NCBI RefSeq assembly: GCF_000243335.1
Contig: NZ_JH597773.1
Location: forward strand, 3,008,156 to 3,032,155
Direction: 5' to 3'
DNA: 24,000 nt
Source: Leptonema illini DSM 21528
GTDB taxonomy: Bacteria > Spirochaetota > Leptospiria > Leptospirales > Leptonemataceae
Shown here piece after piece: positions 4,839 through 14,884 of this stretch; the stretch's first letter is position 1; each line of letters opens with the position of its first letter. Under the pieces are notes generated by a model. It worked only from the letters and a program-made list of their open reading frames with translations. It had not been told where the DNA came from and did not search any database. The position numbers and the translations under genes are program-made.

Positions 4839-6110
4839 TTACAGGCCTTTCAGCCTGGCATAAAGAGCTTTGAATTCTGCGTTCGGATGATTCGGTCGAT
4901 CCTCAAGCTCGGGGCGGATGCCCTTCACAAGATACATGGCCATATCGCCTTTCCCTTTAACGGGCAGCAGTCCTCGATCTTCGCAGATGAAAAAATCCTT
5001 TACCCGCTCATACATATCCTTAGAAATATTCACCTCACCGGGAAGCCCCGCCGATTCCATACGACTGGCGGTATTCACCGTGTCTCCCCAGACGTCATAG
5101 ACGAATTTATCAGTGCCTACGACTCCCGTTATGACCGGACCGCAATGAATGCCGACGCGCAGCCGCCAGTTCCGCGCCGGTTCGCTTGCAGTTGAATGCC
5201 GCTTCATCAGCTTCTGAAAGCGAAGAGCGCAGAGAACGGCGTCCACAGAGTGTGTTTGATTCTCATCGGGGATTCCACCGGCTGCCATATAGGCGTCGCC
5301 GATCGTCTTGATCTTTTCAAGACCTGTGGCCCGCACGGCATGATCGAACGATGCGAAGAGTTGATCGAGTTCTTTGATAAGTTGCTCGGGATTCAAATCG
5401 GCGCTTGCAGCCGTAAATCCCGTCAGATCGGCAAAAAGCACGGTCGCCGATGAGTAACCACGAGGCGTCACACGATCTCGCTTCTTCAGCTCTTCGGCCA
5501 CGGTGAGCGGTAGAATGTTACGCAACAACCGATCGGATTTCAATCTCTCGAATTCCAGGCTGTTTGTAAGTATAAAGATAAGGATGCCGGTCAGCAGCTG
5601 AACGAAAAGATAATTGCCGCCGGCATCCATCAGGCGATCCTCTCGAGAAGGATACATCGTGATCCATTCCGGATACAGATACTCGATAGAGAAGAGAGAT
5701 CCGACGACGAGCAGCGAGATGCCGTATATCAGATACGGACGGCGCCCATCAAGCAGGATCGTCGCGATGACAAGCGCCGGAATAAAGTAATAATGAGCGC
5801 CGCCGACCGATCCGCCATTCCAAAACCAGTTGAAAGATAAAAAAACCAGAATGGTCAGGTTAAAAAGCCAGAAGAGAGAGCGGTGTTGCGACCGGAACCT
5901 GGAAATAAAGTAATACAGAAGGAAGAGCGAGCCTGAAATGAAATGCAGAAGAAACAGACGCACAGGATCGGGTAGGGTCAGAGCGGCAAACGATCCGAGC
6001 AGATTCAAAACACCGTTCACAATGCTGACAGAATTGAAAAGACGCGCCGAAAGCGGATCAAGACGCGGATCACCGATGAGCCGCACAAGTAAACGCAGAA
6101 GCGGCTTCAT
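4839..6110 (-). CDS. Membrane-anchored class III adenylate cyclase (about six N-terminal TM helices plus one cyclase homology domain)
   Basis: The N-terminal half is polytopic and hydrophobic. The catalytic domain has ATVLFADLTGFT (metal Asp), EKIKTIGDAYMAAGG (specificity Lys plus second metal Asp) and FVYDVWGDTVNTASRME (adenine-specifying Asp plus the Asn/Arg pair). All catalytic residues lie in one chain, so it is a homodimeric type. Confidence 0.9.
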   Translation of the reverse strand: MKPLLRLLVRLIGDPRLDPLSARLFNSVSIVNGVLNLLGSFAALTLPDPVRLFLLHFISGSLFLLYYFISRFRSQHRSLFWLFNLTILVFLSFNWFWNGGSVGGAHYYFIPALVIATILLDGRRPYLIYGISLLVVGSLFSIEYLYPEWITMYPSREDRLMDAGGNYLFVQLLTGILIFILTNSLEFERLKSDRLLRNILPLTVAEELKKRDRVTPRGYSSATVLFADLTGFTAASADLNPEQLIKELDQLFASFDHAVRATGLEKIKTIGDAYMAAGGIPDENQTHSVDAVLCALRFQKLMKRHSTASEPARNWRLRVGIHCGPVITGVVGTDKFVYDVWGDTVNTASRMESAGLPGEVNISKDMYERVKDFFICEDRGLLPVKGKGDMAMYLVKGIRPELEDRPNHPNAEFKALYARLKGL

Positions 6111-6490
6111 GAAATGCCCCCCTGCTCCGTTTTGCGCCCGAGGATCAAGAGGGTGGCGCTTCCTGCGAGAACTGAACAGGCAAGGGCAAAAAGAAGCCCT
6201 CCGTCGTCATGGACGACGATTCCAAGTACGGTCAGATGCAGAATAATCGCAGGCACAATGATCAGAATGGATAACATTGCCCCCCTGCGATACTGAGACG
6301 GCCAGAGAAGAAGAACGGAGGCGATCAATTCAGCGAAGCCTGTAGCATAGCGACCGGCCGGTTCGAGACCGACCGTCTCAAAGATAAAGATAGATTCTGC
6401 AGCGCCGGTGAATTTGAAAAATAGAGTCTGCAGAAAGACTCCGGCAACGATCATTCGCAGAACAAGGATAACGATTTTGCGAGGCTGCAT
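6107..6490 (-). CDS. DoxX-like small integral membrane protein
   Basis: Four hydrophobic helices resemble a DoxX-type pattern (LRMIVAGVFLQTLFFKFTG...GFAELIASVLLLWP...). I prefer ATG 6490; the track ORF starts at a TTG at 6565. Its TGA stop overlaps the cyclase ATG as ATGA at 6107-6110. The family call is by eye only. Confidence 0.55.
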   Translation of the reverse strand: MQPRKIVILVLRMIVAGVFLQTLFFKFTGAAESIFIFETVGLEPAGRYATGFAELIASVLLLWPSQYRRGAMLSILIIVPAIILHLTVLGIVVHDDGGLLFALACSVLAGSATLLILGRKTEQGGIS

Positions 6491-6652
6491 CTTACGCAGA
6501 TTCGCAACATTCGATCTCTGGTTGCATGCAGGACATAGAATAACGATAAAAAATGGCCCTCTCAACTAAAAAATAAACTCCGGTCTTCCTCGTCGCTCTC
6601 ACCTCGTAAGTATCTTTTTTTTGCATTTTTTACGATTCCCAGAAAAAACACC

Positions 6653-7207
6653 GTGACGGTGAAACCAATGTCGATGGTGCACGAAACGTGCAGGATGAGC
6701 TCTCTTAAAGAAACATCCCCCGTTACTTCTCTGCAAACATTGCTGAGTCAGACACGCGATCTGCTTTCACTTATCACAGACGAGCAATACACGAAATGCA
6801 CCGCCAGTACTCAGTCGGGAACAGGATCTCATATTCGACACACTCTCGATCATATTCAAGCGTTGCTCGCCGGCCGTAACGGAAATCCGATCGACTACGA
6901 TACCCGAGAACGCAATACTACAGTAGAACGCTCCCGCATGTCGGCTATCGACGCCATCGACCTTCTCATAAAAGACCTGAACTCACTTTCAGAGCAGGAT
7001 CTCAATAAAACGGTAGAGCTACACCTTCTTCTCTCGCCGTTTCATCCACGCTACCGGACGACATCGACGATCGGTCGAGAGCTGGCCTTCGTAATGCATC
7101 ATGCCATCCATCACAATGCCATCATTGCGATGCTTTTGCGTAATCTGGAAGTCGACATTCCCGACTTTTTTGGCTTTGCCCCGGCAACGATTGAAGTGCT
7201 TTCCTGA
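6653..7207 (+). CDS. DinB-family (DinB_2/YfiT-like) four-helix-bundle metal-binding protein
   Basis: Characteristic spaced histidines: SHIRHTLDHIQALL near the N-terminus and FVMHHAIHHNAIIAMLLR near the C-terminus. The start is uncertain: GTG 6653 in the track, with in-frame ATGs at 6668 and 6695. Confidence 0.7.
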   Translation: MTVKPMSMVHETCRMSSLKETSPVTSLQTLLSQTRDLLSLITDEQYTKCTASTQSGTGSHIRHTLDHIQALLAGRNGNPIDYDTRERNTTVERSRMSAIDAIDLLIKDLNSLSEQDLNKTVELHLLLSPFHPRYRTTSTIGRELAFVMHHAIHHNAIIAMLLRNLEVDIPDFFGFAPATIEVLS

Positions 7208-7216
7208 GACGGAACG

Positions 7217-7945
7217 ATGTGTACGCTGACGATACTGCCCGAATCAAAAGACGGAATTCGGTTCTCGGCCATGATGAATCGGGACGAGTTGAATGAACGG
7301 AAAAAGGCGCTGCCTCCTCTCTTGCGAGATGGCATACTCGCCCCTTGCGACGCCGATGCAGGCGGGACCTGGACCGCCATTAACGAAAGCGGGCTCATAG
7401 GATTCGTGCTTAACCGCACGGAAGAAGGCGATAGATTGAACAGCGGCAGCGTCAGCAGAGGTAGCATTCTGCCGGCGCTGCTTGAGGCCCCTTCGGTTAA
7501 AGATGCGTCTGATCAGTGGCATCGTATTCCATTGCATGACATGAGGCCCTTTTACTGTCTGTTACGAGACCGACAGGAACAGCGCCTTTTCTCGTTCAAC
7601 GGAGAGTCCCTGACACACCGACTTATGGATATAGCCAGCCCTCTGCTACTGACGACCTCGGGACTCGGCGACTCTCTTGTGCATCCCTACCGCGAGTCAT
7701 TGTTTGCCCGGCTTCTCTCGCATCATCCCGACAGAGAGACACAGAGGCAATTCCATCATCATCATGATCCGCGGCATCCCGCCCAGAGCGTTATGATGAT
7801 GCGCGACGATGCACGCACGGTCAGCATTACCTCCTATAACGTACAGATTTCGACTGCCTCTATCGACTACTTTGATATCGACGGATCTACCGTTCGGGCT
7901 CAGCTGAGATTACGCAATGCAAAGGAGTCGCTGTATGCCTCCTGA
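7217..7945 (+). CDS. NRDE-family protein (TANGO2 homologue)
   Basis: It begins Met-Cys (MCTLTIL...) and contains the eponymous NRDE motif (SAMMNRDE), followed by GGTW (ADAGGTWTAINESG). It starts 9 nt after the DinB-family stop. Confidence 0.85.
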   Translation: MCTLTILPESKDGIRFSAMMNRDELNERKKALPPLLRDGILAPCDADAGGTWTAINESGLIGFVLNRTEEGDRLNSGSVSRGSILPALLEAPSVKDASDQWHRIPLHDMRPFYCLLRDRQEQRLFSFNGESLTHRLMDIASPLLLTTSGLGDSLVHPYRESLFARLLSHHPDRETQRQFHHHHDPRHPAQSVMMMRDDARTVSITSYNVQISTASIDYFDIDGSTVRAQLRLRNAKESLYAS

Positions 7946-9521
7946 TCTCTCGTCAGAATGGGCCTTTGCCCTCTCGGTCATTCTTGCGACCTTCATCGCC
8001 GAAGACGCTACGTTAATCGCCGTCGGCCTTGCCATCGGCTCGGGCATCGTCTCGCCTGTAACGGGGCTCGTTTCGGCCTTCACCGGCGTCCTTCTTGGCG
8101 ATACGGGCCTCTGGGTAACGGGGCGCTTTCTACAAAAAACGGGCATGCTTCAACGATGGCAGAGCTTCCGTACGGCATCTGAAAAAGGCGGGGCGATGCT
8201 TGCACGTCATTCGGGCAAGATGATTCTCGCCGCACGCTTTGTTCCGGGATTGCGTCTTCCCGTATATCTTGCGGCGGGATTTTTACATGCAAACGACCGG
8301 AAGAAAGGCCGCCTTTCATCATTTATCATGTTTGCCGCACTCGCAGTGATGCTCTGGACGCCTCTGCTTGTCGGACTTTCGGCTATGCTTGGTGTGGCTG
8401 CGGCCGAAACTTTACAGAGATACTCGTATCTTACGCTTCTTCCGCTTCTATCTGTCGCAATCGTTCCTGTTGTCCGTCTTTCTCGCAAAGGCATCGCCAG
8501 CTGGAAGCGATTTGAGTTCTGGCCTGCATGGATCTTCTATGCTCCCGTCGTTCCCTACATCATATATCAGAGCTTACGCTCCGGCGGATTCGGCGCCGTC
8601 GCAGCGGCTAACCCTTCTATTCCGGGAGGCGGCATCGTCGGCGAATCTAAATTCCAGATTCTGTCTTTGATTCCCGAACATCGCTCCCTTCGAGCTCATT
8701 TCATCGCAGCCGATGCAGATCGAGAGAATTCTATCGATACGGCGATCGCCTCGAAGGCCTTTGATTTTCCCGCGATCATGAAACCCGATGCCTCACAGCG
8801 AGGGGCATCCGTACGTATCCTACAGAATCGCGAACAGATGATCGACTATGTGAAGACTACGCCGGGAGACGTTTTGATTCAGGAGTATCATGCCGGCCCC
8901 GGAGAGGTGGGTATCTTTTATATCAGAGATCCCGACCACGAATCGGGAAGCATCTTTTCAATCACGGGTAAGATCTTTCCCTCAATCCAGGGAGACGGCC
9001 AGAAGACCCTGCGCGAACTCATCGAATCGCACGAGCGCTATCGCTTTCAGAAGTCGGTCTTCTTTGAGCGGTTCAAGGACCGTCTGCATACCGTTCCCGA
9101 AAACGGCATAACGGTTTCGCTCGGGCGGGTGGGTAACCATTGTCAGGGCACGCTCTTCTACGATCGCAGCGATCTGATCACGCCCGAGCTAACGATGGCC
9201 GTCGATGCTATGGCCCGATCGATGAACGGCTTCTACTTCGGGCGATTTGATATTCGTTTCGAATCGGAACAGGCCCTGAAAGCAGGGCAGGACTTCTACG
9301 TCGTCGAAGCAAACGGCGTCACCTCGGAGTCCACGAATCTGTACGATCCTTCGTTCTCTCTCTTGCAGGCATACTCCATATTGTTCAAGCAATGGAAGGC
9401 TCTTTTTACGATCGCTCGCAAGAATCGCAGACGAGGCCTTCCCGGAGTCAGCATAATCCGGATCGCCCGGGAAACGCTACATTACTACAGAAACAGAGAA
9501 TTCACGGCGGCATCGGACTGA
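7935..9521 (+). CDS. Fusion protein: N-terminal DedA/VTT membrane domain plus C-terminal ATP-grasp carboxylate-amine ligase domain
   Basis: I prefer ATG 7935 (AGGAG at 7922-7926, 8 nt upstream), which overlaps the NRDE gene by 11 nt. DedA/VTT motifs: FIAEDATLIAVG, LLGDTGLWVTGRF, AARFVPGLRLPVYLAAG. ATP-grasp motifs: FPAIMKPDASQRGASVRIL, VLIQEYHAGPGEVGIFY, FGRFDIRFES...DFYVVEANGVTSEST. The ATP-grasp subfamily cannot be resolved by eye. Confidence 0.8.
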   Translation: MPPDLSSEWAFALSVILATFIAEDATLIAVGLAIGSGIVSPVTGLVSAFTGVLLGDTGLWVTGRFLQKTGMLQRWQSFRTASEKGGAMLARHSGKMILAARFVPGLRLPVYLAAGFLHANDRKKGRLSSFIMFAALAVMLWTPLLVGLSAMLGVAAAETLQRYSYLTLLPLLSVAIVPVVRLSRKGIASWKRFEFWPAWIFYAPVVPYIIYQSLRSGGFGAVAAANPSIPGGGIVGESKFQILSLIPEHRSLRAHFIAADADRENSIDTAIASKAFDFPAIMKPDASQRGASVRILQNREQMIDYVKTTPGDVLIQEYHAGPGEVGIFYIRDPDHESGSIFSITGKIFPSIQGDGQKTLRELIESHERYRFQKSVFFERFKDRLHTVPENGITVSLGRVGNHCQGTLFYDRSDLITPELTMAVDAMARSMNGFYFGRFDIRFESEQALKAGQDFYVVEANGVTSESTNLYDPSFSLLQAYSILFKQWKALFTIARKNRRRGLPGVSIIRIARETLHYYRNREFTAASD

Positions 9522-9575
9522 CGCCCGGGCCCAAAACCCAGGGAGGATTGCAGGACCGGCTCTCAGGAGGAGTGT

Positions 9576-10322
9576 ATGAAAACAGAATTGAAACAGGCAT
9601 ATATTGCGCGAACCGAAGCGGAGCGTTATGCCGCCAGCCGACTGCGTCATGAGGTTTTCGCCGTCGAACAGGGAAGAGGAACAAGCGGGGGCGAAGACGG
9701 CCTTGATCGAGACCGATTCGACGACCATTGCGAGCATCTTATCGTGCCACATCCCGATAGAGCCGATACCGTGATCGGCACCTACCGCATCCTTCTTTCA
9801 GACGTGGCCGAGGCCGGGCCGGGCTACTACTCCGAGACGGAGTTCGATATGAGCGGCATACGAGCGTTACCCATACGCAAAGCAGAGATCGGACGCAGCT
9901 GCGTTCATCCTGATTTTCGCGACGGCAGCGTTATCCGACTTTTGTGGAGCGGCCTTGTTCGATTCATGCAGGAATCCGACGTCGGCTGCTTTATGGGCTG
10001 CGGCTCATTAACAGGTCAGGATGTCGAGCTTGCCGAGATCACATACGCCTGCTTTCGTGATGCGGGTCGCGTCATCTCGGGCAATGCGGTTCGTCCGGTT
10101 CCCGAGGCGGCGCTGCCCGGATTCCGAACCGATATCAGACCTGACGATGCAAAAGCAGCGATGAGACGTATGCCACCGCTGATGAAAGGCTATCTGCGAG
10201 CAGGGGCCTGTATTGCGGGCCCTCCGGCCTGCGATCGGGTATTCGGAAGCATCGATTTCTTTCTGATCTTCTTTCCCGCATCGGGGAATTCAGAATATAA
10301 AAAGCATTTCGGACTGACGTAG
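9576..10322 (+). CDS. GNAT-fold N-acyltransferase of the OlsB/FeeM (N-acyl amino acid synthase, 'putative hemolysin') type
   Basis: AGGAGG at 9565-9570 sits 5 nt before the ATG. The pattern is LRHEVFAVEQGRG...DRDRFDDHCEHLIV...VIGTYRIL...YYSETEFDM...EIGRSCVHPDFRDGSVIRLLWSGL, the layout of acyl-ACP-dependent amino acid N-acyltransferases. Confidence 0.7.
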   Translation: MKTELKQAYIARTEAERYAASRLRHEVFAVEQGRGTSGGEDGLDRDRFDDHCEHLIVPHPDRADTVIGTYRILLSDVAEAGPGYYSETEFDMSGIRALPIRKAEIGRSCVHPDFRDGSVIRLLWSGLVRFMQESDVGCFMGCGSLTGQDVELAEITYACFRDAGRVISGNAVRPVPEAALPGFRTDIRPDDAKAAMRRMPPLMKGYLRAGACIAGPPACDRVFGSIDFFLIFFPASGNSEYKKHFGLT

Positions 10323-10329
10323 CGAGCCG

Positions 10330-11640
10330 TCACACGCGCAATCGAAAGGCGCTTACGGGCTGATCGTTACCCTTCACCTTCATGGGTTCAAGCGCCTCGA
10401 ATCGTAAACCATGAGCGGCACCGGGATCACCTTCGGCTAACGTCAGAACTTTTTCGTAAGTGGTCTGGTCGCAATAAATCGAATCAGAGGCCTGCATGAG
10501 TCGGGCGGCAAGGTTCACGACGTTACCGTGCATCGTGTATTCGCTGCGAATCTCGTTACCCATCGGACCGACAAAGACGACTCCGGTGCCGATGCCGATG
10601 ACGGCCTTATGCCCCATCTCGCCGAGCTCGGTGAAGATATCGCGAGCCGAAAGCAGGGCGCGCACGGCGTCGTCAGGATGATCGAGAGGCGGTAATCCGA
10701 AGGCGGCGAGAATGACCGTACCCTTTTCCTCAATCCCGAAACGATTGATGGCTCCCTCATGACGGTACAGACCGTCCTGCACCTTGCGCATCACGCGATG
10801 GACCTCTTCAATCGGCAGCTCGGCCGTATGCCATTCAAGAATCCGAATAAAAAGAACGGTTACCGTGCGCACCTCGAAAGCGGCGGAGCCGCCGCGGCCC
10901 TCTTCTATGAGATTGATGATACGTCGCGGAATAAAGCAACGCAACGCCTTCTCACAACCGGGCTGTAAGGCGGGGATGGCAAGAGGACCCGGTGCTTCGG
11001 CCTCCGGACGGTGCTCGACAAGAAGTCGATTGCCTTCCCGATGCCCCGCCTTCATTGAGCGGATCATACGCGCCGCCTGGGGCGAGATCACGACCTGGCC
11101 TGGCTCGGCCTGCTTTTGCGCCCGGCCCACCTGGTCGACGGCATCGCCACCGATCAGAAACTCCCAGCGGTCGTACAGGCCGCCAACCATCTGGGCAAGC
11201 AGCGGTCCGGCGCCGACTCCGATACGCAAAGAAAGCTCCATGCCTGAACCGATCTTCGTTCTGTCGAGCTGGCGCTGTAGCTCCAGGCCGCAATGAGCGG
11301 CGCGCAGGGTCATCTGAGCCAGCTCCTTTTCTGAGGTGGCAGGCCAGACGGCGATCAGGGCATCACCGGCAAATTTCAGAATATCACCGCCGAATTCGTC
11401 GATGATGTCGATCTGGCGGCTGAGATACAGGTTTACGATATCGGCGAGTTCGATCAGGCCATTGGAGGATAGCTTCATAATCCTCTCAGTCAGAGAGGTA
11501 AAGCCGGCCATATCGGCGAAAAGCGCTGCTCCGACGATGCTCTCGGCCACAGGACGCTCGGGAGGGGCCGGATGTTCGACGAGATGTTCGAGAACCAGGC
11601 GAGGTGCATATTTGTGTAGCTTATTCAGGAATTCTGACAT
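10330..11640 (-). CDS. Soluble class III nucleotidyl cyclase with two tandem cyclase homology domains (sAC-like pseudo-heterodimer)
   Basis: I prefer ATG 11640 (MSEFLNK...). CHD1 keeps both metal Asp residues (AALFADMAGFT; KFAGDALIAVW) but lacks the Asn of the Asn/Arg pair (GGDAVDQVGRAQ). CHD2 has lost the metal Asp residues (VTVLFIRILEW; EEKGTVILAAFG) but keeps the Asn/Arg pair (EYTMHGNVVNLAARLMQA), with Thr at the position of the adenine-specifying Asp. Confidence 0.85.
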   Translation of the reverse strand: MSEFLNKLHKYAPRLVLEHLVEHPAPPERPVAESIVGAALFADMAGFTSLTERIMKLSSNGLIELADIVNLYLSRQIDIIDEFGGDILKFAGDALIAVWPATSEKELAQMTLRAAHCGLELQRQLDRTKIGSGMELSLRIGVGAGPLLAQMVGGLYDRWEFLIGGDAVDQVGRAQKQAEPGQVVISPQAARMIRSMKAGHREGNRLLVEHRPEAEAPGPLAIPALQPGCEKALRCFIPRRIINLIEEGRGGSAAFEVRTVTVLFIRILEWHTAELPIEEVHRVMRKVQDGLYRHEGAINRFGIEEKGTVILAAFGLPPLDHPDDAVRALLSARDIFTELGEMGHKAVIGIGTGVVFVGPMGNEIRSEYTMHGNVVNLAARLMQASDSIYCDQTTYEKVLTLAEGDPGAAHGLRFEALEPMKVKGNDQPVSAFRLRV

Positions 11641-13702: not shown

Positions 13703-14884
13703 ATGATCTCAGTCGGAACTCCGTCCTCATCCACCGCCACCAAGCTGCTGCTGCTCGGTTCGGGCGAACTTGGCCGTGAAGTCGCCATCGAGGCGATTCG
13801 CTTTGGAATCCATGTCGTCGCCTGCGACCGCTATGAAGGTGCGCCGGCCATGCAGGTGGCGCAGGAAAGGCGGGTCTTCTCGATGCTCGACGAAGAGGCC
13901 CTCAGACGCACGATTGAAGAGGTGCAGCCGGCCCTGATCGTCCCTGAAATCGAGGCCATCGCCACGCACGTTCTGCTTGAATACGAAGAAAAGGGCATGA
14001 CGGTTATTCCCACGGCAAAGGCCGCACGCCTTACGATGGATCGCGAAGGCATCCGTCGTTTTGCCGCCGAGACGCTCGCTCTGCCCGTTTCGCAATACCG
14101 CTTTGCCGGCACACGCGAAGAGTATGCGCAGGCGGTGCGTGAGATCGGCCTGCCCTGCGTCGTGAAGCCGGTGATGAGCTCTTCGGGCAAAGGGCAGAGT
14201 ATCGTACGCACGGAAGCCGAGATCGATAAGGCCTTTGATTATGCGCAGAGTGGAGGTCGCGCCGGAGCGGGCCGCATGATCGTCGAAGAGTTTATTCCCT
14301 TCGATTATGAGATCACTCTGTTAACCGTGCGCCATGAAGGCGGTACGTCCTTCTGTGAGCCGATCGGGCATCTGCAGATCGACGGTGATTACCGTGAGTC
14401 GTGGCAGCCGCAGCCGATGAGCGAGGCGGCGCTTGCGAAGGCAAAGCAGATCTCGGCGAAGCTTACGGAGGGACTGGGTGGACGCGGTATCTTCGGAGTG
14501 GAGCTTTTTGTAAAAGGCGATGACGTCTATTTCAGCGAGGTCTCACCCCGTCCGCATGATACGGGCATGGTGACTCTGATCTCGCAGGATCTGAGCGAGT
14601 TTGCGCTTCATGTGCGGGCCATTCTCGGTCTGCCCATTCCGGGCATTCGCCAGTTCGGACCGGCGGCCTCGGCCGTTATTCTGCCCGAAGGGAATAGCAG
14701 CAGCATGGTGTACGAGAATCTTGATGCCGCTCTGCGCGAAGTCGATACGGGGCTGCGCATCTTCGGCAAGCCGGAGATTCAGGGGCATCGCCGACTTGGC
14801 GTCGCCTTCGCTCTTGGCGCTACGATCGATGAGGCGCGAGCGAAGGCCCGTAATAGCGCCGCTCAGGTAAACGTGCGCATGTAG
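13703..14884 (+). CDS. purT: Formate-dependent phosphoribosylglycinamide formyltransferase (GAR transformylase 2)
   Basis: Near-colinear with E. coli PurT as I recall it: [118 protein letters not shown] prefer ATG 13703 over the TTG at 13670. Confidence 0.95.

Follow-up and report, generated by a model that had tools for sequence, protein, structure and literature searches.

DedA/VTT proteins, among them Escherichia coli YqjA, YghB and DedA, UptA, and the eukaryotic (also human) TMEM41B and VMP1, are widely regarded as transporters and are under active study as lipid scramblases, with substrates that are mostly inferred. UptA, a DedA relative, recycles undecaprenyl phosphate, and in YqjA acidic residues in the first membrane helix and an R..P..R re-entrant motif are essential. 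The ATP-grasp ligases RimK, GshAB, TTL and the G domain of cyanophycin synthetase CphA activate the carboxylate of an amino-acid residue, at a terminus or in a side chain, and join an amino acid to it; in other ATP-grasp members a pre-ATP-grasp domain usually helps to bind the non-nucleotide, soluble substrates. Both superfamilies are thus known, as are fusions of a lipid synthase to a flippase (MprF), and we know of no earlier description of a DedA protein fused to an enzyme, in the literature searched or otherwise. Here we describe such a fusion, encoded in a 24,000-nucleotide stretch of the Leptonema illini DSM 21528 genome (Spirochaetota, Leptospirales; contig NZ_JH597773.1, positions 3,008,156 to 3,032,155), referred to below as the window. 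All coordinates are those of the window.

One polypeptide with DedA/VTT and ATP-grasp parts

The fusion gene lies in an uninterrupted open reading frame (ORF) of 534 codons on the forward strand (7917–9521). ATG 7935 is preferable as the start to ATG 7917, from which the frame is also open, because an AAGGAG ribosome-binding site (7922–7927) stands 7 nt upstream of it and because the two closest homologues, P0001 (92% identity, 528 aa) and P0002, begin at the equivalent methionine. From there the gene (7935–9521, +) encodes 528 residues; residue numbers in this text follow the 534-aa frame. A preliminary description, made from the letters of the window, had proposed a single polypeptide joining a DedA/VTT domain to an ATP-grasp ligase, and had named a frameshift between two genes as the finding that would overturn this. 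More than 3,000 homologues share the continuous ORF, which bears out the first and contradicts the second. That the fusion is an assembly or frameshift artefact of two genes, or that its ATP-grasp part has decayed to a merely structural role, is extremely improbable: thousands of proteins from independent assemblies across phyla share the ORF, every ATP and Mg residue is invariant in the alignment described below, the ATP-grasp part is 74% identical to its closest representative, and the match to the closest related genome is free of stops. We found no point in favour of such a reading.

The membrane part, residues 7–190 (7935–8486, +), was delimited by Pfam VTT_dom, AlphaFold 2 (AF2) helices, hydropathy, Lys/Arg counts and invariant alignment columns. 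VTT_dom (PF09335) matches residues 32–155 with an E value of 2.3e-10 (41.4 bits against a cut-off of 33.9), and it is matched by 42 of 43 aligned homologues, a set that is 39–92% identical to the window protein, all but two members falling at 39–45%. Invariant across these 43 sequences are E29, D30, D62, R107, P110, G111 and R113, and the re-entrant-loop motif, RFVPGLRLPVYLAAG, occupies residues 107–121, so that the assignment of residues ~1–190 to DedA/VTT on the strength of this motif holds. We take E29, D30, R107 and R113 to be the counterparts of YqjA E39, D51, R130 and R136, an equivalence read from the motif and not from an alignment. AF2 and hydropathy place the invariant E29–D30 pair in a helix at residues 14–41 (TM1 and re-entrant loop 1; TM, transmembrane), with a second helix at 47–74. 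A Lys/Arg-rich amphipathic stretch at 75–108 (cytoplasmic helices) then leads into re-entrant loop 2, R107-F-V-P-G-L-R113, and a basic loop (124–132) precedes two TM helices at 133–168 and 170–190.

These last two helices are part of the DedA fold and no addition to it, because the UptA and DedA profiles align through them. The NCBIfam UptA profile aligns over residues 37–183, and the UptA and DedA alignments together span residues 37–185, both weakly: the UptA model NF052604 scores 20 bits against an equivalog cut-off of 250, and the DedA model PRK10847 scores 18 bits against 236. The window protein thus shares with the DedA/VTT family an above-threshold VTT domain, the acidic pair of TM1 and the R-x-x-P-G-x-R motif, and differs from the members named above in being a divergent, enzyme-fused member. 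Both flanks of the last TM pair have Lys/Arg counts that mark them as cytoplasmic, and by the positive-inside rule this supports a cytoplasmic ligase domain, in agreement with the topology that the preliminary description had anticipated. The linker that follows (about residues 175–196) is basic, with a predicted local distance difference test score (pLDDT) below 50.

The catalytic body of the ligase spans approximately residues 240–480 (8634–9356, +), as judged by a profile comparison with the PDB, Foldseek and invariant columns. None of the Pfam or NCBIfam ATP-grasp models reaches threshold on the C-terminal 340 residues, where matches to CphA and carbamoyl-phosphate synthetase (CPSase)-like models are weak, and a single-sequence phmmer search of the PDB returned no match; ATP-grasp structures were reached by the family profile only. 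That profile, built from the 43 homologues, matches cyanophycin synthetase at E 1.2e-4 with the KP..G.G and E.N motifs aligned, and also matches D-Ala-D-Ala ligase (Ddl), glutathione synthase, CPSase, RimK-domain and TTLL chains. The AF2 model of the whole protein has a pLDDT of 84.8 and a predicted template-modelling score (pTM) of 0.69. Searched with Foldseek, it yields 337 matches at E ≤ 0.001, including GshAB (3ln6, E 1e-10), CphA1 (7wae and 7txv) and many Ddl structures, with E values of 1e-10 to 1e-7 across these three groups. Together with the invariant catalytic residues, the profile and structural matches establish the C-terminal domain as ATP-grasp. Checking the two domains by hidden Markov models (HMMs), as had been suggested, therefore gives a split outcome: DedA is recognised by Pfam VTT_dom, and the ATP-grasp part stays below the Pfam and NCBIfam thresholds and is matched through its own family profile against the PDB.

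The motifs of this domain comprise GESK245, MKP (K289) followed by QRGASV, a QEYH hinge, E330, GNHCQGT, GRFD (R443 and D445) and E464-A-N466. Because K245, K289, E330, R443, D445, E464 and N466 are all invariant in an alignment that lies mostly at 39–45% identity, the ATP/Mg catalytic set is, as judged from the sequences, intact and not degenerate, and the nucleotide-binding Lys and Mg-binding D...E.N elements first noticed by eye are confirmed in the alignment; the equivalence of the D/E/N Mg triad to that of RimK was itself read from the motifs by eye. The kinship to RimK is distant. Aligned by hhalign with the genome's own RimK and Ddl as single sequences, an underpowered comparison, the family profile gave probabilities of 8.5% and 0.3%, and only the KP..G.GV and QEY motifs aligned to RimK, which amounts to motif support; K289/G.GV and the QEY hinge also align to CphA1. 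The RimK Pfam model PF08443 does not match the window protein and matches 8 of the 43 homologues weakly (best E 9.6e-4), and homologues give weak TTL Pfam matches as well.

In the AF2 secondary structure, the stretch from the last TM helix to the GESK motif consists of short helices and contains no beta-alpha-beta unit. The model thus implies that the Rossmann-like N-terminal pre-ATP-grasp domain is absent, with the membrane part in its place. At the other end, a family-specific helix pair (9360–9518, +; AF2 helices 482–505 and 513–525) closes the protein. The fusion family shares the ATP-grasp fold and ATP/Mg residues with RimK, the CphA G domain, GshAB and TTL, its nearest relatives by profile and structure; it differs in being marginal to them in sequence, in lacking the pre-ATP-grasp domain, and in having a membrane-surface helix (described below), a GNHCQGT loop and this unique C-terminal helix pair.

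The last residue of the protein, D534 (codon 9516–9518), follows Ser or Ala (..S/A-D) and is invariant in 43 of 43 sequences, an unusually conserved terminus. We considered whether the enzyme could be a RimK/TTL-like protein ligase that adds amino acids to the C terminus or side chains of membrane proteins, with DedA as an anchor and its own ..S/A-D tail as a possible target. The weak RimK and TTL matches and the invariant terminal Asp fit such an activity. We nevertheless consider it very unlikely, as the neighbourhood holds no conserved candidate target protein, and the fusions to TANGO2 and alpha/beta hydrolase domains and the linkage to ornithine-lipid (Ols) synthase genes, both set out below, are more easily read as lipid chemistry.

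Between the two domains lies a conserved aromatic, Pro-rich helix, EFWPAWIFYAPVVPYIIY, at residues 198–221 (8508–8579, +), with a basic stretch before it. Rich in Trp, Phe, Tyr and Pro, it carries the motif R-W-E-F-W-P-x-W-L-F-Y-x-P, in which E200, F201, P203, F207, Y208 and P210 are invariant, and is among the most conserved segments of the protein. The preliminary description had taken the region after DedA for an extra TM helix. Residues 198–221 fall below the TM hydropathy threshold, and the segment is probably an interfacial, monotopic or re-entrant membrane element rather than a spanning one. A true TM helix here was rejected on three grounds: it would place an ATP-dependent domain in the periplasm, its hydropathy is sub-threshold, and the segment is the sole hydrophobic element of the stand-alone forms of the ligase.

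Distribution and domain architectures of the family

A word-indexed search returned 3,197 proteins at E ≤ 0.001, of which the best 120 are nearly all full length (510–600 aa); their annotation is at most 'VTT domain-containing protein' or 'membrane protein DedA'. With one genome taken per species, at least 578 species genomes encode relatives that were confirmed among the 600 candidate stretches listed. They come from about ten phyla, including Planctomycetota, Acidobacteriota, Verrucomicrobiota, Gemmatimonadota, Rhodothermota, Balneolota and Spirochaetota, and almost all are metagenome-assembled genomes (MAGs). Searching exhaustively with only the ligase part, we obtained 1,140 representative clusters at E ≤ 1e-30. 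A literature search on DedA with ATP-grasp, and on TANGO2/DinB/VTT neighbourhoods, found no description of the fusion family; the OlsHI paper does not mention it, and a Leptospira transcriptome paper containing the terms TANGO2, DinB and VTT lists unrelated genes. The ligase part has no curated Pfam or NCBIfam model. This large family is at present annotated only as 'VTT domain-containing protein'.

Architectures were compared in 155 sequences, the best 150 representatives plus five from individual loci. DedA-ligase accounts for 75 and hydrolase-DedA-ligase for 32; in a further 24 a hydrolase and a polytopic region not recognised as VTT precede the ligase, 2 are TANGO2-hydrolase-DedA-ligase, and 22 have no recognised N-terminal domain. 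The ligase follows a polytopic membrane region in 137 of the 155, and an alpha/beta hydrolase is fused in 58. Among the 22, 18 are truly short, stand-alone forms in which the ligase is preceded by fewer than 90 residues. Hydropathy, examined in P0127, L066 and L095, shows no TM segment in any of these three, and the two N termini that were read (L066 and L095) consist of a basic stretch followed by the EFWPxWLFY helix; L066, L095 and L096 were verified as stand-alone in their genomic context. The two TANGO2-containing proteins, P0138 (1121 aa) and P0156 (1130 aa), carry TANGO2, alpha/beta hydrolase, VTT and ATP-grasp ligase domains in that order, the assignments being confirmed by Pfam, and so physically join a TANGO2 homologue to a lipid-handling machine.

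In a FastTree phylogeny of the ligase domain the architectures are interleaved, with at least 9 changes between stand-alone and membrane-fused forms on well-supported branches and at least 11 changes for the hydrolase fusion, counts to be read with the caution that FastTree support is weaker than that of a careful search and that some short forms may be truncated gene calls. Within the host order, ligase matches occur in 15 of 18 genomes of the host's own family and in all 12 of a sister family, 11 of which carry a frame of 368–434 residues matching the ligase part only; the twelfth (G027) has the full fusion. From the repeated stand-alone forms and the ligase-only frames of the sister family it follows that the constant unit is the membrane-surface helix plus ligase, with DedA a frequent but dispensable partner, and the ligase itself appears from these sequences to be membrane-associated always. 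The comparison of fused with split versions that had been called for gives 75 DedA-ligase against 18 truly stand-alone forms among 155, besides several other fusions. The earlier suggestion that ligation is coupled to translocation by DedA fares worse, since stand-alone ligases arose at least nine times and an obligatory coupling finds no support.

Gene context and a proposed aminolipid substrate

The gene 54 nt downstream of the fusion gene (9576–10322, +), with its own GGAGGAG, encodes an OlsB-like amino-acid N-acyltransferase (Pfam Acetyltransf_5, E 6e-30; NCBIfam OlsB, E 5e-40). The match is full length and stays below the equivalog cut-offs (137.8 bits against 350 and 130.7 against 320). 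HMMs built from neighbour clusters were run on 82 loci from about ten phyla, counting as neighbours genes within 5 kb. The recurrent neighbours are DinB (63 loci), TANGO2 (57), an alpha/beta hydrolase, fused or adjacent (37), an OlsB-type GNAT (34), DoxX (31), an AhpC/TSA-YHS protein (21), an OlsA-type PlsC (19) and a Rieske-ferric-reductase membrane protein (17). Of the 34 loci with an OlsB-type GNAT, 19 have a separate OlsA and the rest are OlsF-like; the genes are arranged as OlsB-OlsA upstream on the same strand, as OlsB-OlsA downstream, or as a convergent OlsF-like bifunctional gene. Ols-linked loci occur under eight phylum labels, some of which look unreliable for MAGs. NCBIfam models recognise the linked synthases as full-length OlsF (E 1e-120), OlsB and lyso-ornithine-lipid OlsA, all below equivalog cut-offs. 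Of 10 genomes from other phyla that have no adjacent Ols gene, 9 have an OlsB/OlsF GNAT elsewhere, compared with 2 of 14 controls; the same comparison is uninformative in Leptospirales, where a PF13444 GNAT is present in all 31 genomes, including three without a ligase match.

We propose, with a probability of roughly 0.5, that the fusion protein is a membrane-tethered RimK/CphA-like ligase that amidates the head group of an N-acyl amino-acid lipid, with DedA presenting or flipping the lipid. The proposal follows from four observations: the lack of an N-terminal domain for soluble substrates, the membrane tether, the fusions to hydrolase and TANGO2, and the adjacency to aminolipid synthases. 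In this mechanism the ligase, at the cytoplasmic face, would use ATP to form an acyl-phosphate and then an amide bond on the head group. The substrate would be an ornithine-lipid-type aminolipid made by the linked OlsB-like enzyme, or by OlsBA or OlsF elsewhere. The part of DedA would be to bring the lipid to the active site or keep it there or else, in the manner of MprF, to flip the product into the outer leaflet. TANGO2, which has a Cys-Ntn amidase fold, and the alpha/beta hydrolase would trim the modification or take it off again.

MprF offers the best functional analogy for such a mechanism, since it too combines a cytoplasmic lipid-head-group enzyme with a flipping membrane domain in one protein. 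Its parts are different: the synthase is tRNA-dependent and GNAT-like, not ATP-grasp, the flippase is unrelated to DedA, and the substrate is phosphatidylglycerol. A Pfam scan of the fusion protein found only VTT_dom and no MprF-type domain. Relative to the OlsBA and OlsF pathways and their modifiers (the hydroxylases OlsC, OlsD and OlsE and the methyltransferase OlsG), to which the module is adjacent or with which it co-occurs, it would be a further head-group modifier; ATP-grasp ligases, DedA proteins, TANGO2 homologues and DinB proteins are not represented among these known modifiers.

A membrane-embedded substrate was already part of the preliminary description, which had placed ligation on a lipid-linked molecule with polyprenyl phosphates in the foreground. 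The first part fits the present data; the emphasis on polyprenyl phosphates does not, as Ols-type aminolipid synthases recur instead. We weighed whether the ligase could act on another membrane substrate, either a polyprenyl-phosphate-linked cell-wall intermediate or a glycerophospholipid head group such as that of phosphatidylserine or phosphatidylethanolamine, with the Ols genes linked only through general membrane remodelling. The role of UptA in undecaprenyl phosphate recycling and its weak alignment here, the existence of ATP-grasp ligases that act on peptidoglycan precursors, and the absence of a nearby Ols gene from about half of the 82 loci would all be accommodated. Among the neighbour clusters of those loci, however, no peptidoglycan, glycan, polyprenyl or cell-wall genes recur, the biosynthetic neighbours that do recur across phyla are all Ols-type synthases, and the UptA score of 20 bits is far from the cut-off of 250. 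We judge such a substrate unlikely.

A different division of labour would suit the redox character of several neighbours: the product of the ATP-grasp domain would be small and soluble, for example a dipeptide, a compound of gamma-glutamyl or thiol type, or a modified amino acid later acylated by OlsB, and DedA would serve as its proton-driven exporter. DinB, DoxX and AhpC/TSA have a thiol/redox flavour, the top structural match, GshAB, makes a soluble thiol peptide, and transport is the role generally ascribed to DedA proteins. Against this stand the stand-alone ligases, which lack a transporter and still bear a dedicated membrane-surface helix; the predicted absence of the pre-ATP-grasp domain, the usual binder of soluble substrates; and the fusions to lipase-type alpha/beta hydrolases together with the Ols adjacency, which point to lipids. 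A synthetase-exporter of this kind seems to us improbable, to about the same degree as the cell-wall or glycerophospholipid substrate.

Returning to the amidation of an aminolipid, its likeliest chemistry would be activation of the free alpha-carboxylate of the lipid followed by addition of an amine or amino acid, because an N-acyl amino-acid lipid offers, at the membrane surface, an N-acylated residue whose free alpha-carboxylate resembles a peptide C terminus, the substrate type of RimK, the CphA1 G domain, GshAB and TTL. That it is specifically the lipid carboxylate that is activated we put forward tentatively, as somewhat short of an even chance. A reaction of this class is on record: taurine is transferred to the carboxyl group of ornithine lipid in an ATP-dependent step that is known biochemically and has no gene assigned to it (PMC12971839). 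In Gluconobacter cerinus this taurine transferase serves cerilipin synthesis (PMC12971839), and its ATP-dependent amidation of a free carboxyl belongs to precisely the reaction class that we propose here; the fusion family, for its part, is found mainly in Planctomycetota, Acidobacteriota, Verrucomicrobiota and Leptospirales. The family is a concrete candidate class for ATP-dependent ornithine-lipid amidation, which has been known as a reaction from the 1970s onwards.

Human TANGO2 shares its fold and its catalytic residues with the Cys-Ntn hydrolases that cleave fatty-acyl amides, namely bile-salt hydrolase, acid ceramidase and NAAA (PMC13044924). Because TANGO2 shares this fold and these residues, the pairing of a ligase with an amidase is plausible. 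A more specific possibility, which we regard as doubtful, is that the ATP-grasp ligase and the TANGO2-type amidase form a write/erase pair that reversibly amidates the carboxylate of an N-acyl amino-acid lipid while DedA flips the product. An amine or amino acid, perhaps several residues in RimK fashion, would be added, giving an MprF-like surface-charge system built from unrelated parts. Were this true, bacterial membrane lipids would gain a new class, an enzyme-fused DedA would for the first time have a defined lipid substrate, and the TANGO2 family, whose human member causes TANGO2 deficiency disorder, would have a concrete biochemical substrate class.

Several points weigh against an aminolipid substrate. 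The substrate, the direction of the reaction and what DedA does in it are inferred, the substrate wholly from gene context and fold. An Ols gene is adjacent in only 34 of the 82 loci and in 0 of 9 Verrucomicrobiota loci, the ligase is accompanied more regularly by DinB and TANGO2 than by Ols genes, and the frequent redox neighbours (DoxX, AhpC/TSA-YHS and the Rieske-ferric reductase) are left unexplained. Co-occurrence with PF13444 is a weak test, given that the GNAT is present in all Leptospirales searched, and the position of the linked synthases below NCBIfam equivalog cut-offs means that the amino acid is not fixed. DedA, moreover, is dispensable in many lineages, and the relative placement of the two domains is uncertain given the low linker pLDDT (<50) and the pTM of 0.69.

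Whatever the substrate, a natural DedA-ligase fusion marks the molecule handled by this DedA and gives a direct assay for it. Operon linkage and outright fusion would further tie bacterial TANGO2 homologues to fatty-acyl amino-acid lipids, and bacteria thereby become a system in which the disputed biochemical function of TANGO2 can be tested.

Neighbouring genes and further observations

Upstream of the fusion gene, a run of genes on the forward strand begins with a DinB_2-family gene (6653–7207; Pfam DinB_2, E 1.8e-9), from which a gene for a DoxX-family membrane protein (6107–6565, −; Pfam DoxX, E 9e-6) diverges. It continues with a TANGO2/NRDE homologue (7217–7945, +; Pfam TANGO2, E 3.8e-14), which starts MC.. 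and has Cys2 and the NRDE motif; its stop overlaps the start of the fusion gene by 11 nt. A promoter and terminator scan of 6400–10500 found nothing above shuffled expectation that would help to delimit the operon. TANGO2 proteins of Leptospirales fall into two subtypes, a canonical one (Pfam E about 1e-60 to 1e-72) and a divergent one (E 1e-10 to 1e-16) that matches only the first ~110–210 of 257 profile positions. The operon-linked copy of the window is of the divergent subtype and keeps Cys2 and NRDE.

Two OlsB-like GNATs are encoded in the genome, the one at 9576–10322 and another outside the window (G000:C1:4120393-4120701). The latter resembles a copy present in all 31 Leptospirales, and the operon-linked paralogue occurs only in G000, G001 and G005. 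This suggests, from sequence comparison, that the operon-linked copy is a dedicated paralogue, possibly with its own specificity.

A gene for an adenylate/guanylate cyclase with six TM segments adjoins the DoxX or ligase gene in the window (4839–6110, −) and in two loci from sister-family genomes (L095, 3379–4677, −; L097, 7870–9162, −), and a similar cyclase occurs in loci L028, L044 and L075. The adjacency may reflect a lineage-specific signalling link. Planctomycetota and some other phyla have, ahead of the module, genes for a Rieske-ferric-reductase membrane protein and a peroxiredoxin-like AhpC/TSA-YHS protein (for example L005, 109–3059; L011, 85–3180; L012, 1131–3185). This redox set, for which the aminolipid proposal has no role, sometimes continues after the module with a Rieske-FMN reductase and a glyoxalase. 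In a Rhodothermales locus (L039), an MlaE-type lipid-transport permease gene (6608–7366) lies directly 3′ of the hydrolase-DedA-ligase gene with a 4-nt overlap. Elsewhere in the window, a second ATP-grasp-like gene, unrelated to the fusion, is marked by a weak Dala_Dala_lig_C match (E 9.5e-8) at about 14111–14557 (+) within a frame of ~404 aa.

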